Source of the DNA: Trichloromonas sp.
GTDB taxonomy: Bacteria; Desulfobacterota; Desulfuromonadia; Desulfuromonadales; Trichloromonadaceae
DNA length: 64,000 nt
Assembly: GCA_034002365.1 (NCBI GenBank)
Contig: JAVFAR010000003.1
Span: 490-64,489 of the forward strand
Reading direction: 5' to 3'
Shown piece by piece: positions 1-4,324 of this stretch. The translations under genes and the position numbers were made by a program. How positions within the stretch are numbered: position 1 is the stretch's first letter; every line of letters begins with the position of its first letter. A model generated the notes under the pieces. It did no database searches, was not told where the DNA came from, and saw only the letters and a list, made by a program, of their open reading frames with translations.

Positions 1-2
1 CG

Positions 3-200
3 GTCATCAACCAGTCCAACACTCAAGGCGCCGCCAACATCGCCATCGGCCAGGACAACACCGCCAACATGGGCTCCACCAATATCCAAAACTCCGCCGT
101 CAAGGGCGCGGTGATCAACACCTCCAACGCTCAGGGCGCGGCCAACATCGCCATCGGCAAAGGCAACGAAGCCAATATGGGCTCGGTGAACGTGAAGTAA
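3..200 (+). CDS. 3' end (partial) of an Asn/Gly/Ala-rich repeat protein, candidate major amyloid/fibre subunit
   Basis: Not in the ORF track. The frame from nt 3 reads VINQSNTQGAANIAIGQDNTANMGSTNIQNSAVKGA-VINTSNAQGAANIAIGKGNEANMGSVNVK-stop (TAA 198-200). It has a 108-nt/36-aa imperfect repeat and GC-rich third codon positions. The gene starts before the window. Confidence 0.8.
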   Translation, partial: VINQSNTQGAANIAIGQDNTANMGSTNIQNSAVKGAVINTSNAQGAANIAIGKGNEANMGSVNVK

Positions 201-212
201 TCCGCTTGATCC

Positions 213-239
213 GCCGCCCCCGCCGAGAGCGGGGGCGGC
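213..239 (+). terminator. GC-rich hairpin after the repeat gene, no U-tract (stabilising hairpin or partial terminator)
   Basis: GCCGCCCCCGC-cgaga-GCGGGGGCGGC is a perfect 11-bp stem. A second imperfect hairpin lies at 261-294. Confidence 0.6.
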
Positions 240-310
240 ACTTGTAGTGCAACACCCGATGAGCCCGTCGATGCCCAACCGGCGTGACGGGTTCCCTTTA
301 AGAAAGGACC

Positions 311-664
311 ATGGTGATGACAGGCAAATACTGGGCCACTCTCTTTCTGCTCGTCGGTCTGCTCCTGGCCGGCACCGGTGTCGTCCTGGCGGATGACCTG
401 GATGACGGCATCGGCAAATTCACGGATGACGGCGTGGATAAATACGATGAACTGGGGGAAAAGGACCGCAACATCAGCTTTATCGTCCAGGACGCCAAAA
501 GCCGCGCCAACGTGCGCGCCCAGGCCGGACAGGAGCAAGGCATGGCCGGAACCAGCGGCGGAGGAAACATGAACAGCGTGATCATGGGCCCGGGCGGCAA
601 GGTCAGAGGGGACATCATCATCATCGACCAAAGCAGGGGTGACAAGACCCAGGTGGTTGAATAA
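311..664 (+). CDS. Secreted protein with one degenerate copy of the upstream repeat (candidate minor subunit/nucleator)
   Basis: RBS AAAGGA and Sec-type signal peptide ending VLA. The C-terminus NMNSVIMGPGGKVRGDIIIIDQSRG aligns with the repeat NMGSTNIQNSAVKGAVINTSNAQG. Confidence 0.7.
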   Translation: MVMTGKYWATLFLLVGLLLAGTGVVLADDLDDGIGKFTDDGVDKYDELGEKDRNISFIVQDAKSRANVRAQAGQEQGMAGTSGGGNMNSVIMGPGGKVRGDIIIIDQSRGDKTQVVE

Positions 665-711
665 CCGAAACCGTTCCGGTGGATCGCATACAGTGATGAA
701 GGGATAGATAG

Positions 712-2121
712 ATGGAAAGTGTTGCCCGCTCTTGTCGATTTCTGCTGTTGCCGCTTTTCCTGCTGCTGGCCGCTTGCGCCGGCCTCGATCCGGCTAATGT
801 GGACGTGCAGTTGCCAGAGTCGGCGCCTCAGGCGAAATCAACCTCCTACACCCAGGCCTTGCGCGATCTGGGGCTCATGACCGAAATTTACGGCTCTCAG
901 ATAGTCAAGATCCAGAGCAATCCCATCGGCGACAATACCGGAACTTCGGGCAGTACCGGCGGGGAAATCCCTCGGGACATCACCGAAATGATCAAAAGTT
1001 CGCTGAACTCCATCGGCGGGCAGGTGACTTTCATCCCTTACGATCCCGCCTTCATCCAGAACCAGATGGTGACCGGCTACTCCACCTTCGATAACAAGCT
1101 GATTCCCGATGTCGTCATCAGCGGCGGCATCACCGAGTTCGACCGCGGCCTGGAAACGCGCGGCAAGGGGACCGATGCCGGAGCCGAAGCCACTTTCACC
1201 AACGCTCCCGGCTGGGTTCCCTCCAAGTCGGTCAGCCTTGATTACAGCGACACGGACAAAATCGGACTGGCCCGCATCACTCTCGATTTCAACCTGCTCG
1301 ACTTTCAGACCATGGCCGGGATTCCCCGCATGAATACCACCAACAGCATGGAAGTGAGCAAGGGCATGGCCGAACGGGAAATCGGCATCACCCTCTTCGG
1401 CCCCACCTTCGGCCGCAAAGGCTCGATCAAAAAGGTTCAAGGTCGCCATGCGGCGGTACGGCTGCTGGTGGAAGCCAGCATGATGCAGATTGTCGGAAAA
1501 TACCTCAATCTCCCCTATTGGAAGCTGCTTGGCGAAGATGCCGAACCGGATCAGGTGGTCATGGATTCCATCTCCCAGGAGTTCTACCGCAGCACGGAGG
1601 CGCAACGGATCGCCAAGGCGCAGGTCTGGCTCTTCCTCATGGGCCACAACGTTCCGGTGAACGGCGTTCTCGACCAGCCGACACTGGCGGCCCTGACCGC
1701 GGTCGATTCTTCCGTCTCCATGCAGACGGCGAGCATCAGCGTTGAAACCTACGGCAAGCTTTTCCAGTCCGTCCCCATTAAACCGGCCACCCTCGGGCGA
1801 CGGAATATGCTTCTCAGCGGCGTGACTCCGCCCGCCACCCCTGTCGCCGCGCCGCCGCTGACGGCACCGACCCCGACTCCCGCCGCGGTGCAGTCCGCTC
1901 CGGCACCGACCCCGGATCCCAAACCCGCCGCGACGCCGGCTCCGGCCCCCTCGCAGCCGGCGTCGCGGACAGCTCAGGCCAGCAAAGCTGCAGCGGCTGC
2001 CGCAGCCAGTAAGCCGACACCGCCACCGGCACCGGCACCCAAAGCCGCACCGGCGACGGCCCCGGCACCAGCATCGAGCGGTGGTTCGGTCGGGCGGAAG
2101 CTCAGTGACGAGGAATGGTGA
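712..2121 (+). CDS. CsgG/HfaB-family lipoprotein with peptidoglycan-binding-like domain and Pro/Ala-rich tail
   Basis: Lipobox LAAC. CsgG-like motifs IGDNTG, ITEMIKSSL, DVVISGGITEFD, ITLDFNLLD, AVRLLVE. PG-binding-like motif QVWLFLMGH-VNGVLDQPTLAAL. About 90 aa of P/A/T-rich C-terminus. Confidence 0.72.
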   Translation: MESVARSCRFLLLPLFLLLAACAGLDPANVDVQLPESAPQAKSTSYTQALRDLGLMTEIYGSQIVKIQSNPIGDNTGTSGSTGGEIPRDITEMIKSSLNSIGGQVTFIPYDPAFIQNQMVTGYSTFDNKLIPDVVISGGITEFDRGLETRGKGTDAGAEATFTNAPGWVPSKSVSLDYSDTDKIGLARITLDFNLLDFQTMAGIPRMNTTNSMEVSKGMAEREIGITLFGPTFGRKGSIKKVQGRHAAVRLLVEASMMQIVGKYLNLPYWKLLGEDAEPDQVVMDSISQEFYRSTEAQRIAKAQVWLFLMGHNVPVNGVLDQPTLAALTAVDSSVSMQTASISVETYGKLFQSVPIKPATLGRRNMLLSGVTPPATPVAAPPLTAPTPTPAAVQSAPAPTPDPKPAATPAPAPSQPASRTAQASKAAAAAAASKPTPPPAPAPKAAPATAPAPASSGGSVGRKLSDEEW

Positions 2122-2125
2122 GAAA

Positions 2126-2434
2126 ATGCCGACCAAGGGTCAACATATTGTGGCGATCTCCCTGCTGGTCTGCGCCTTTGGTCCCGGCGCCGCCCTGGCG
2201 ACCGCCGGCAATCGTGTCATGGTCGAGGAGAGGGTGAAGGAGCTGTCCGAGCTCAATCAACAACTGCTCGAACAGGAAGAGCTTCCCCGGGACGGAAAGC
2301 TCGAACTTAAAGCCGAGGCCCGATACCTTCAGGACGGATCGATCAATCTGCAGGTTTACAGCCGAAAATTTTCCGCCATCGATGAAAAACCCATCACCTT
2401 TGACGGGCAGCAAACCAGAATGCCCGCCCAATAG
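2126..2434 (+). CDS. Hypothetical exported protein
   Basis: ATG 4 nt after the previous stop, signal-peptide-like N-terminus, operonic spacing. Confidence 0.6.
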   Translation: MPTKGQHIVAISLLVCAFGPGAALATAGNRVMVEERVKELSELNQQLLEQEELPRDGKLELKAEARYLQDGSINLQVYSRKFSAIDEKPITFDGQQTRMPAQ

Positions 2435-2445
2435 AGGAGCCTGAC

Positions 2446-3189
2446 ATGCCGAGCAAGTATCCTGGTTTTTTTCTGGCTGCGTTGTGCTGCCTGCTGCTGG
2501 TGGCACCTCCAGCCATGGCCGGCAACAAACGCATCATGAGCGTCAAGGCCGCGAAGGTCATGGCGGAACGGGCTTTGGTTGAATCGGTCTACGGGCTCAA
2601 GCTGCGGGCCGAGGAACGGGTCGAGGACATGGTTTCCGCGAGCTTCATCGGCAATACCGAATCGAAGACCGCCGCCCAGATCAAGGGGATCGTCTTCGAA
2701 GAAGTCATCTATGACGCCAACCAGGATATCGCTCAGGTGACGGCTTCGGTGAAAATGCCGAGCATCACCAACATCGACGGCCAGACGGTGAACCTCGGCA
2801 ACAAGGTCTTCCGGCGCGTCGGCTTCGCCACCTCCACCCCCAAGGCGGCCGGTCCACTCAAGGCTCTGCGGGCGGCGGAACTCGACGCCTACAAGGAACT
2901 GATCAAACAACTGGTCGGTTTCGAGCTGGAAAGCCATACCACCGTGGAAAACTTCATGTTGACTTCCGACGTGGTTAAAACCAAGGTCATGGCGACCCTC
3001 TTCATGGCGGAACTCACCGAATACGGCTGGACCCCGGAGGGGGACGGCTATGTAAAGATGCAGCTCAACCTGAAGGAAGCCTCGGAAGTTCTGGGGCAGA
3101 ACATTATCACCGACCGGGAAATCATCGACGTCGAAGGGCAGGGCGCTCAGGTTGATGATTTCACCGCCGCTAACGGCGAAAAAAGATGA
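2446..3189 (+). CDS. Exported protein with two tandem LPP20/FlgP-like domains
   Basis: RBS GAGGAG and signal peptide ending AMA. Two similar segments: KAAKVMAERALVESVYGLKLRAEERVEDM and RAAELDAYKELIKQLVGFELESHTTVENF. Confidence 0.7.
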   Translation: MPSKYPGFFLAALCCLLLVAPPAMAGNKRIMSVKAAKVMAERALVESVYGLKLRAEERVEDMVSASFIGNTESKTAAQIKGIVFEEVIYDANQDIAQVTASVKMPSITNIDGQTVNLGNKVFRRVGFATSTPKAAGPLKALRAAELDAYKELIKQLVGFELESHTTVENFMLTSDVVKTKVMATLFMAELTEYGWTPEGDGYVKMQLNLKEASEVLGQNIITDREIIDVEGQGAQVDDFTAANGEKR

Positions 3190-3515
3190 ATTCCGGAGAC
3201 CCGATGGATATTCAACCGCAAAAAGGTCGATTCAAATATTTCTGTTTGGGTTTGCTCGCCGCCTTGGCCGTGATGCTGCTGGCCGGAGCCGGAGACATCG
3301 TCGGCGCGAATAATTTCGGCCCCCCGAACTATGGCCGCTATCAGATCTCTTCCTGGAGTTCCGACTTCGGTGATAAAGGCGGCGGCTTCGGCCTGTTCAT
3401 GGCCGACACCGCGACCGGCGAGGCCAAACTGGTTTACAGCCGGGTTTTCGGCGAGGTCGGCAACGGCGATGTGAAAAAGGATGAACTGGGGAAGCCTTTC
3501 GGCAGCATCAGGTAG
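3186..3515 (+). CDS. Hypothetical membrane-anchored or exported protein
   Basis: ATGA overlap with the previous gene. Hydrophobic helix FCLGLLAALAVMLLAGAG followed by GRYQISSW and DTATGE. Confidence 0.65.
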   Translation: MNSGDPMDIQPQKGRFKYFCLGLLAALAVMLLAGAGDIVGANNFGPPNYGRYQISSWSSDFGDKGGGFGLFMADTATGEAKLVYSRVFGEVGNGDVKKDELGKPFGSIR

Positions 3516-3570
3516 TCATTGACCACGGTTGCAAGCAAATGACCACTCACACAAACCTTAAGGAGCTGCC

Positions 3571-4287
3571 ATGCGCGCTCGACATCTTAAAACGTTCCTG
3601 ATTCTTTCCTGCTCCGGATTACTGCTTCTCTCGGGACAAAGCTGGGGGGCCGTGCAGATCAACATCGGCTCGAATATCGTCAATACCGGTAACGTCAGCG
3701 GCTGCGTTGAGGGGAGCGGCTCCGCCAAGGAAGAAAGCCGCTCCCTGCCGGCCTTTCACGGATTGGATGTCGAAGGAGCCTACACCGTTCGGATCGACGT
3801 CCAAAAGGATCAGAGCGTCGAAATCTCCGCCGACGACAACCTGCTCCCCTTGATCACGACCGAAGTTCAAGACGGAATCTTGCGCGTCACCTCGAAAAAA
3901 TCGATTTGTGCCAGCGCCCCCATGGTCCTGACCATCACGGTGGAGACCCTTGACCAGATCCGCTCCAGCGGCGCCAACGAGTTTCAGGTACGAAACCTCA
4001 AGGGGGACGCCTTGGCGGTCGATCTATCCGGGTCCAGCAACATGACCCTGGATGGGACGGTGGAGGAACTGAAGGCCAAAATCGACGGAGCTTCGGGACT
4101 GGCCGCCGGGCGACTGAAGGCGAAAGAGGTTTCCGTGGCGATCAGCGGCGCCGGATCCGCCGAGGTCTATGCCGGCAAACGGCTTCAGGGGGACATCAGC
4201 GGCGTCGGCAGTATCCGTTACTCCGGGCAACCGGGGGAAGTGGTGAAAAACATCACCGGTTGGGGGGATATCACCCCCGTCGATTGA
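3571..4287 (+). CDS. DUF2807 / head-GIN-domain beta-helix exported protein
   Basis: RBS AAGGAG and signal peptide. Motifs GSG...E.R.L..F, SADDNLLPLITTEV..G.L and repeated SGA/SGS strands ending ISGVGSIRYSGQP. Confidence 0.85.
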   Translation: MRARHLKTFLILSCSGLLLLSGQSWGAVQINIGSNIVNTGNVSGCVEGSGSAKEESRSLPAFHGLDVEGAYTVRIDVQKDQSVEISADDNLLPLITTEVQDGILRVTSKKSICASAPMVLTITVETLDQIRSSGANEFQVRNLKGDALAVDLSGSSNMTLDGTVEELKAKIDGASGLAAGRLKAKEVSVAISGAGSAEVYAGKRLQGDISGVGSIRYSGQPGEVVKNITGWGDITPVD

Positions 4288-4291
4288 GTTG

Positions 4292-4324
4292 AAAAGGGCG
4301 GCTCCAAAGGAGCCGCCCTTTTTC
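4292..4324 (+). terminator. Rho-independent terminator closing the 1-4.3 kb operon
   Basis: AAAAGGGCGGCTCC-aaa-GGAGCCGCCCTTTTT. Confidence 0.85.

Follow-up and report, generated by a model that had tools for sequence, protein, structure and literature searches.

A conserved gene cluster of anaerobic sediment bacteria encoding a CsgG-fold lipoprotein and a predicted beta-solenoid repeat protein

We describe a cluster of seven genes, g1 to g7, at the start of a 64,000-nucleotide stretch of Trichloromonas DNA (the window), which covers bases 490-64489 of contig C3 in a genome assembly of 233 contigs that is 88% complete. Nearly identical proteins (99%) were labelled Trichloromonas (formerly Desulfuromonas) acetexigens in the source records. 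The cluster is real, widely conserved in anaerobic sediment bacteria and apparently undescribed. By analogy with better-studied systems, we hold with moderate confidence that it encodes a type VIII-like (curli- or holdfast-anchor-like) outer-membrane export and assembly system for a new beta-solenoid repeat protein. The initial annotation of this DNA had proposed a distinct type VIII-like system that combines long repeats with a CsgG-type pore, and the fold of g3, its two hairpins and the conserved gene order now give that proposal computational support.

The seven open reading frames (ORFs) lie on the + strand and occupy positions 3-4287 of the window. They and the two structures predicted in the transcript are as follows.

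1..200, + strand: 3′ end of g1, the gene of the repeat subunit (ORF 3-200); its 5′ part is cut, and the rest lies on bases 1-489 of C3 and on contig C206
213..294, + strand: two GC-rich hairpins in the g1-g2 spacer, without a T-run (folding)
311..664, + strand: g2, a 117-aa secreted protein of no known family, upstream neighbour of g3 (ORF)
712..2121, + strand: g3, a 469-aa outer-membrane lipoprotein of predicted CsgG fold (fold model, profile)
2126..2434, + strand: g4, a 102-aa exported protein with a coiled-coil-like segment, of no family and poorly conserved in sequence
2446..3189, + strand: g5, a 247-aa exported protein with two LPP20/FlgP-like domains in tandem (Pfam, profile, hhalign)
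3186..3515, + strand: g6, a 109-aa protein with an N-terminal membrane anchor, of no family; start codon and g5 stop codon overlap (ATGA)
3571..4287, + strand: g7, a 238-aa exported DUF2807 beta-helix protein (Pfam PF10988)
4292..4323, + strand: Rho-independent terminator that ends the operon (folding against shuffles)

The CsgG-fold lipoprotein and the repeat protein

As judged from its predicted structure, the g3 product is a CsgG-fold lipoprotein. It is made up of a channel-type domain of CsgG fold (residues ~33-280), a peptidoglycan-binding-like domain of three helices (~281-331) and a Pro/Ala-rich tail. Its signal peptide ends in ...LAAC, and all 45 relatives compared share the lipobox cysteine, Cys22. 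A hydrophobic signal or anchor can be read at the N-terminus of every product of the cluster, as had been stated from the start. Relatives of g3 are numerous and tightly conserved: 884 matches were returned by a word-indexed search, and 484 clusters at 50% identity by an exhaustive one.

Identity between g3 and CsgG is about 10%. The AlphaFold2 (AF2) model of residues 1-340 has a mean predicted local distance difference test score (pLDDT) of 89.8 and contains long hairpins at 134-161/173-197 and 203-228/232-242. The top 25 Foldseek matches of this model in the PDB are all CsgG (best, 6l7a_A, E 2e-11, probability 1.0), and the membrane-inserted form of CsgG fits the model better than the pre-pore form. 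With VIA-align, g3 and CsgG superimpose at a Z of 17.4 over 218 residues (root-mean-square deviation, rmsd, 5.0); the folds that come next (DUF330, FlgT, PelC, the TolB N-terminal domain and LptE) have a Z of 11 or less. The best solved-structure match of the g3 family profile is again CsgG (E 0.048), and 11 of 45 diverse relatives match Pfam CsgG at E≤0.01, the best at 8.5e-9. In the 45 relatives, hydrophobic and polar columns alternate at 154-162/173-179 and at 223-229/232-240, from which amphipathic hairpins are predicted. The original reading of g3 as CsgG-like is thus upheld by its modelled fold.

The domain that follows has its own affinities. PG_binding_1 (PF01471) matches 15 of the 45 relatives, the best at 1e-5; the C-terminal part of the g3 of the window gives no match to it. 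Weak matches (E 0.1-0.6) join the g3 profile to the peptidoglycan-binding domains of AmpDh2 and related enzymes. The model is helical at 281-331, and its neighbours in the ESM Atlas bear PG_binding_1. Some relatives of g3 are fused to TPR repeats (P0069, P0110, P0111).

The presumed substrate, g1, is interrupted by a contig break. Bases 1-489 of C3 carry further repeats upstream of the window, and the reverse strand of contig C206 (L004:1-339, - strand) and the start of C3 have 314 nt in common, apart from 2 mismatches. Since C206 provides a ribosome-binding site, an ATG and a typical signal peptide, g1 is a small secreted protein and not a domain of a large one. A repeat gene that had no signal peptide, or that was part of a large unrelated protein, had been set beforehand as a finding that would tell against the initial annotation; the C206 junction reveals neither. 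When joined, g1 encodes 237 aa, in which the signal peptide is directly followed by about six 36-aa repeats and nothing else. Tandem Repeats Finder gives a period of 108 nt (5.8 copies, 80% matches) and a super-period of 216 nt at 87%, which bears out the 36-aa repeats noticed earlier. The repeat count is uncertain, and may be under-assembled, because the break falls inside the repeats and the proteins of two close relatives, at 309 aa, contain 8 of them.

An alignment of 29 homologues of g1 consists of near-perfect 36-aa units, in each of which three Gly, three Asn and one Ala are invariant and Pro, Cys and aromatic residues are absent. The protein is rich in Asn, Gln, Gly, Ala and Ser. It has no match to Curlin_rpt (PF07012), even at E≤10. 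Weak matches to pentapeptide repeats (NCBIfam, E 1e-3, 19 bits against a cut-off of 125; PDB Np275/276, 2e-5) look compositional, since 36 is not a multiple of five and there is no match of fold, and this identity was rejected. A conductive fibre was likewise considered and discarded, as aromatic, Cys and His residues are all missing from g1.

As the initial annotation had expected, the AF2 model of g1 is a beta-solenoid: it is all-beta and uncapped, with about five strands per repeat and a pLDDT of 94.5. Foldseek finds no match to it in the PDB at E≤0.001, and for the solved FapC structure 9u4u_A the match is no better than chance (E 0.17, TM-score 0.12-0.15). A wide search with VIA retrieves only generic beta-helices: MpAFP at a Z of 11.2, bactofilin at 9.2 and crystal structures of DUF2807 at about 9. 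In these alignments, about 114 residues of a helix with 19 residues per turn align over the entire 216-residue model, from which we infer one 36-residue coil per repeat. A coil of this size has no solved look-alike and, going by the model, would represent a new class of beta-solenoid. Among the entries of the ESM Atlas, a predicted Caulobacter HfaD cluster comes nearest in shape (TM-score 0.61 by query and 0.37 by target, 173/176 residues, rmsd 3.2).

Across loci, the repeat proteins range from ~150 to ~1,700 aa, nearly always with a period of 36 (or 72/74) and a signal peptide, and many loci pair one long with one short repeat gene. In the short forms (~200-310 aa, 5-8 coils), neither end bears a domain that could serve as a cap or an anchor. 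Such uncapped ends would therefore be compatible with end-to-end stacking.

A number of points weigh against the export system proposed here. The score of the N-terminal 330 aa of g3 against Pfam CsgG (PF03783) is 12 bits (E 0.13), under the cut-off of 20.8, and g3 is therefore classed as a distant relative of CsgG fold and not, by its own score, as a member of PF03783. The whole protein has no match in Pfam, and it scores 10.3 bits against the HfaB equivalog (NCBIfam NF037935), for which the cut-off is 300. In the profile alignment, the equivalent of the constriction loop is 5 residues shorter than in CsgG. In the g3 family, this loop has a conserved pattern, Asp-x-Thr-Gly...Thr-Gly-Gly-Glu-Ile-Pro, that is rich in Thr, Ser and Gly and has no residues of the Tyr51/Asn55/Phe56 type. 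The channel may accordingly have properties other than those of CsgG, or the ring might not let protein through at all. As to g1, the reading of one coil per 36 residues derives from alignment ranges rather than from coordinates, and the sequence has no separate N-terminal targeting segment; CsgA has one, N22. The CsgG fold is also found in the non-channel periplasmic lipoproteins PelC and FlgT and in the TolB N-terminal domain. Most CsgG-family proteins are not linked to curli, such linkage being found for 171 of 601 Pfam CsgG proteins (PMC3521004). Finally, export, pore formation and polymerisation are all proposed by analogy with CsgG and HfaB.

Several of these points would suit a scaffold in the periplasm or associated with the outer membrane, where g3 and g5 would form wall-anchored rings like those of FlgT, FlgP or PelC, and g1 would polymerise in the periplasm in the manner of bactofilin, as a structure that strengthens the envelope or serves for positioning. 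The fold that g3 shares with the non-channel ring proteins FlgT and PelC (at a lower Z, ~10-11), its peptidoglycan-binding-like domain, the missing CsgG constriction residues, the likeness of g5 to FlgP and the overlap of the g1 model with bactofilin (Z 9.2) are all consistent with such a scaffold. However, g3 is far closer to CsgG than to the ring-only lipoproteins (Z 17.4 vs. ≤11), it fits the membrane-inserted conformation of CsgG best, and its two long amphipathic hairpins, which the ring-only relatives lack, are kept in the 45 relatives. We regard the scaffold as rather unlikely.

Another course would be that g1 is exported via g3 but does not polymerise. It could then act as a monomeric rod adhesin, or as a beta-helix that is tethered at the channel and binds minerals, ice or polysaccharide. 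The top solved match of g1 is indeed the beta-helical antifreeze/adhesin region of MpAFP (Z 11.2), relatives of ~1,700 aa are long enough to make single-molecule rods, and HfaD is an anchor rather than a long fibre (PMC6707917). On the other hand, the short forms, uncapped and unanchored at both ends, favour stacking, and the pairing of long and short repeat genes recalls major and minor subunits. That g1 remains monomeric seems to us unlikely, and we return below to an exported protein that assembles.

Conservation and spread of the cluster

Relatives of g3 were sought in one genome per species with the 11 closer g3 sequences as queries, and 203 were found. Neighbourhoods were counted in the best 80 of the 203 loci together with Desulfobacula phenolica (81 in all), each gene being scored only where the flank was long enough:

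repeat gene of the g1 type, upstream of g3: 57 of 60 loci
g2, directly upstream of g3: 75 of 79 loci
g5, downstream of g3: 63 of 74 loci
g6, downstream of g3: 47 of 73 loci
g4, downstream of g3: 40 of 74 loci
g7, downstream of g3: 34 of 67 loci, and divergent upstream in some others

The order g1-g2-g3-(g4)-g5-g6-(g7) recurs in loci labelled Thermodesulfobacteriota (Desulfuromonadia, Desulfobacteria and Desulfobulbia), Nitrospirota, Campylobacterota and FCPU426, and the 36-aa period of the repeats is retained across the same four groups. Between phyla, g3 and g5 are 50-70% identical. In the window, the distances between successive genes from g1 to g4 and on to g5 are 110, 47, 4 and 11 nt, g5 and g6 overlap by ATGA, and 55 nt separate g6 from g7. 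The seven co-oriented, tightly spaced genes closed by one strong terminator, which the initial annotation had described, are accordingly found again in the ORFs, their spacings and the folding energy given below, and its expectation of a conserved neighbourhood is confirmed in most of the 81 loci. That the genes are chance neighbours or mis-called ORFs with no shared function can hardly be credited. All that speaks for it is the lack of family matches for g2, g4 and g6, and it is opposed by the common order in several phyla, the close packing with an overlap and a single terminator, and the identity of g3 and g5 at such distances.

Desulfobacula phenolica illustrates the usual arrangement and one of its variants. 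A gene for a 273-aa repeat protein is followed by homologues of g2, g3, g4, g5 and g6 in the same order, and the DUF2807 gene lies divergently upstream, beside a second CsgG gene with TPR repeats. The divergent genes (L008:639-6518) encode the DUF2807 protein, a FlgT_N-like protein, a 668-aa CsgG+TPR fusion and a 670-aa fn3-like protein. In two other loci (L067, L089) the module has survived a rearrangement: the order is permuted, with g3-g5-g6 ahead of g2 and the repeat genes.

The distribution is patchy. The module is present in 4 of 401 sampled genomes of the phylum, and in none of 13 others of the same order or class. In the tree of g3 the lineages are mixed, with one clade of Desulfobacteria as sister to Nitrospirota and with Desulfuromonadia in several places; horizontal spread is therefore suggested, not proved. 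On a tentative reading, the module may move horizontally among lineages labelled Thermodesulfobacteriota, Nitrospirota and Campylobacterota. A 2.4-kb contig labelled Promethearchaeota archaeon (L083) carries g2-g3-g4, and its g3 is separated by a tree path of only ~0.07 from that of a Thermodesulfobacteriota metagenome-assembled genome (L062). A bacterial contig binned wrongly is the most likely explanation, more so than a copy in an archaeon.

Partner proteins, known systems and a possible mechanism

Single-protein searches of the seven products in Pfam and NCBIfam give nothing significant except DUF2807 and a near-threshold LPP20; g2, g4 and g6 have no family match there. The product of g2 has a near-invariant acidic motif (DLDDG...) right after the signal peptide, then a Gly/Ser linker and a short beta-rich C-terminus. 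In a language-model search, HfaA is the sole named family in its vicinity, at a sub-threshold score of 0.77 and rank 36, which can serve as a lead only. A complex prediction for g1 with g2 scored 0.00, which speaks neither for nor against binding. The idea that g2 contains one degenerate copy of the g1 repeat had to be given up: a hidden Markov model built from 149 units scores the g2 homologues at 2.6 bits or less, where the 99th percentile of shuffled sequences is 2.9, and hhalign of the g2 and g1 families aligns signal peptides only.

The match of g5 to Pfam LPP20 (PF02169; E 6e-5, 23.8 bits) falls just under the cut-off of 25.9; 23 of 27 relatives match LPP20, the best at 3.5e-10, and the family profile matches solved FlgP ring subunits in the PDB at 3.1e-6 to 1.7e-4. 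The two halves of g5 align to one another (hhalign E 3.2e-5, 84 columns), and g5 is therefore a tandem of two domains. Unlike Lpp20 and FlgP, g5 has no clear lipobox in its sequence. The g7 product matches DUF2807 (PF10988) over the whole profile (positions 1-181 of 181) at 114.9 bits, for a cut-off of 24.2. Both kinds of partner, LPP20/FlgP-like and DUF2807, were thus rightly foreseen.

To our knowledge, curli are the only case of CsgG-based secretion understood in detail, the anchor of the Caulobacter holdfast being known in outline. The cluster resembles curli in having a CsgG-fold lipoprotein with two hairpins of transmembrane type (g3), in having a Sec-exported subunit rich in Asn, Gln, Gly, Ala and Ser that is made of tandem repeats only and is a predicted beta-solenoid (g1), and in the clustering of subunit and channel genes. 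It differs in the peptidoglycan-binding-like domain and the Pro/Ala tail added to g3, in the shorter constriction loop, and in the repeat of g1, which is 36 aa long with about five strands per coil in the model; the repeats of CsgA are 19-23 aa long and have two strands. It differs also in its accessory genes, which here are the FlgP/LPP20 tandem, DUF2807 and three orphan proteins. There is no CsgE, CsgF or CsgC among the seven products. Searches for Curlin_rpt (PF07012), CsgE and CsgF (PF10614, PF10627), which detected the E. coli controls, found none in the locus or in the 88%-complete genome, as the initial annotation had already noted for CsgE and CsgF in the locus.

In Caulobacter, hfaA sits beside hfaB in the hfa operon. 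The HfaA-HfaB-HfaD(-HfaE) system shares with the cluster a CsgG-like lipoprotein; the g1 model comes nearest in shape to the predicted HfaD cluster, and the gene of the small secreted protein g2 lies directly upstream of the channel gene, much as hfaA neighbours hfaB. HfaA and HfaD require CsgG-like HfaB for surface display, and they form multimers resistant to SDS (PMC6707917; bioRxiv 10.1101/2022.07.20.500906). Neither g1 nor g2 has a sequence match to the Hfa models searched, and the likeness to HfaD and HfaA is one of shape and of language-model score. Unlike the holdfast system, the operon has no holdfast polysaccharide genes that we could see, and its hosts, which bear the labels Thermodesulfobacteriota and Nitrospirota, are anaerobes and do not belong to the Caulobacterales. 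Going by the models, the holdfast anchor (HfaB with HfaD) would be the nearest analogue at least as much as curli.

Two further systems share parts with the cluster. The Fap system of Pseudomonas (FapB/FapC, FapF) also has secreted subunits with amyloid-type repeats of a length of similar order, but the channel candidate here has a CsgG fold and is not a FapF barrel; the Pfam searches of the seven products give no Fap family. The disk proteins FlgP, FlgQ and FlgT of flagellar motors and the Lpp20 of H. pylori are probably of one family with the C-terminal domain of g5. FlgP builds concentric rings beneath the outer membrane, and FlgQ resembles a repeat of two FlgP protomers (PMC12222027), much as g5 is a tandem of two domains. 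In contrast to these disk proteins, g5 is always linked to the CsgG-like gene and not to motor genes, and there are no flagellar genes in the operon. In the literature searched, there is no paper that combines CsgG with LPP20, FlgP or DUF2807, or that describes such a CsgG-like system.

These likenesses can be assembled into a possible pathway. The products would first cross the inner membrane via Sec, for which all have signal peptides that can be seen in their sequences. Lipidated g3 would then reach the outer membrane and oligomerise, as CsgG does, into a channel lined by two amphipathic hairpins of each modelled subunit; its peptidoglycan-binding-like domain and Pro/Ala tail would tether this channel to the cell wall. 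CsgG itself makes a ring of nine subunits with a 36-stranded barrel. Beneath the channel, g5 may assemble into a ring or collar in the periplasm, much like FlgP around the flagellar motor, and with g4 and g6 it may replace CsgE and CsgF. The g1 protein would be exported unfolded and would fold outside into its beta-solenoid, one 36-residue coil per repeat. With no cap in the way, one solenoid could join the next at its end, giving a fibre, a rod or an anchor, and relatives of up to ~1,700 aa could make long rods alone. The near-universal small partner g2 might most plausibly be an adaptor of the channel or a nucleator, and the beta-helix of g7 may be a cap or an anchor. By the same analogies, the likely role is adhesion or the building of matrix in biofilm-forming anaerobes.

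A broader proposal, which we offer as a tentative one, is that the cluster represents a third independent branch of CsgG-based (type VIII) secretion, next to curli and the holdfast anchor. Such a branch would have a channel anchored to peptidoglycan, a constriction with a different lining, a FlgP-like collar in place of CsgE and CsgF, and amyloid-like solenoids of 5 to >45 coils that form surface fibres or rods, all encoded by a module that moves horizontally. Most proteins of the CsgG family are without a known substrate, and the module supplies one large orphan branch with a full list of parts and a putative substrate. It also prompts one to ask how a channel of the CsgG type can do without CsgE and CsgF. 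The hosts include biofilm formers that respire electrodes or metals (Trichloromonas/Desulfuromonas, Geomonas), sulfate reducers and Nitrospirota, for which a dedicated surface fibre could matter in attachment to minerals, electrodes or partner cells. Finally, the g3 family is a source of CsgG-like pores with a different constriction, and may interest nanopore engineers.

Transcript structures and genomic surroundings

The operon ends in a hairpin at 4292-4323, 5 bases past the stop of g7, with a GC-rich stem of 14-15 bp and a T-run. Its folding energy is -30.2 kcal/mol (z -4.5), which none of 200 shuffles equals. A simple pattern scan for terminators did not detect this hairpin; the folding test did. 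The two hairpins of the g1-g2 spacer (213-294) fold at -56.6 kcal/mol (z -4.7), again with no equal among 200 shuffles, and the T-run is absent. They may be a 3′ stabiliser of the mRNA, an attenuator or a partial terminator that favours the g1 transcript, and could set the ratio of subunit to machinery transcripts.

RNA data are available as contigs that hold small shares of the stretch, and zero cover of g7 and the terminator region is uninformative in such libraries. A 3,141-nt contig from a sediment metatranscriptome library, ~94% identical, runs from the end of g1 through g6; DNA carry-over is possible, and the contig gives a weak hint that the cluster of a relative is transcribed. One biofilm metatranscriptome has cover on the repeat region of g1 only, for which repeat collapse and the contig format preclude an expression level.

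About 80 nt upstream of g1, C206 encodes a 133-aa secreted protein without a family match (L004:420-821, - strand). Its gene is an eighth conserved one and may be the first of the operon. Homologues are found near the cluster in 23 of 67 loci; they are located just upstream of the repeat gene in six loci, or nearby on the other strand. Elsewhere in the genome, four more genes score above the Pfam CsgG cut-off (L090-L093, on contigs C28, C45, C32 and C35), one of them in a frame of 538 aa.

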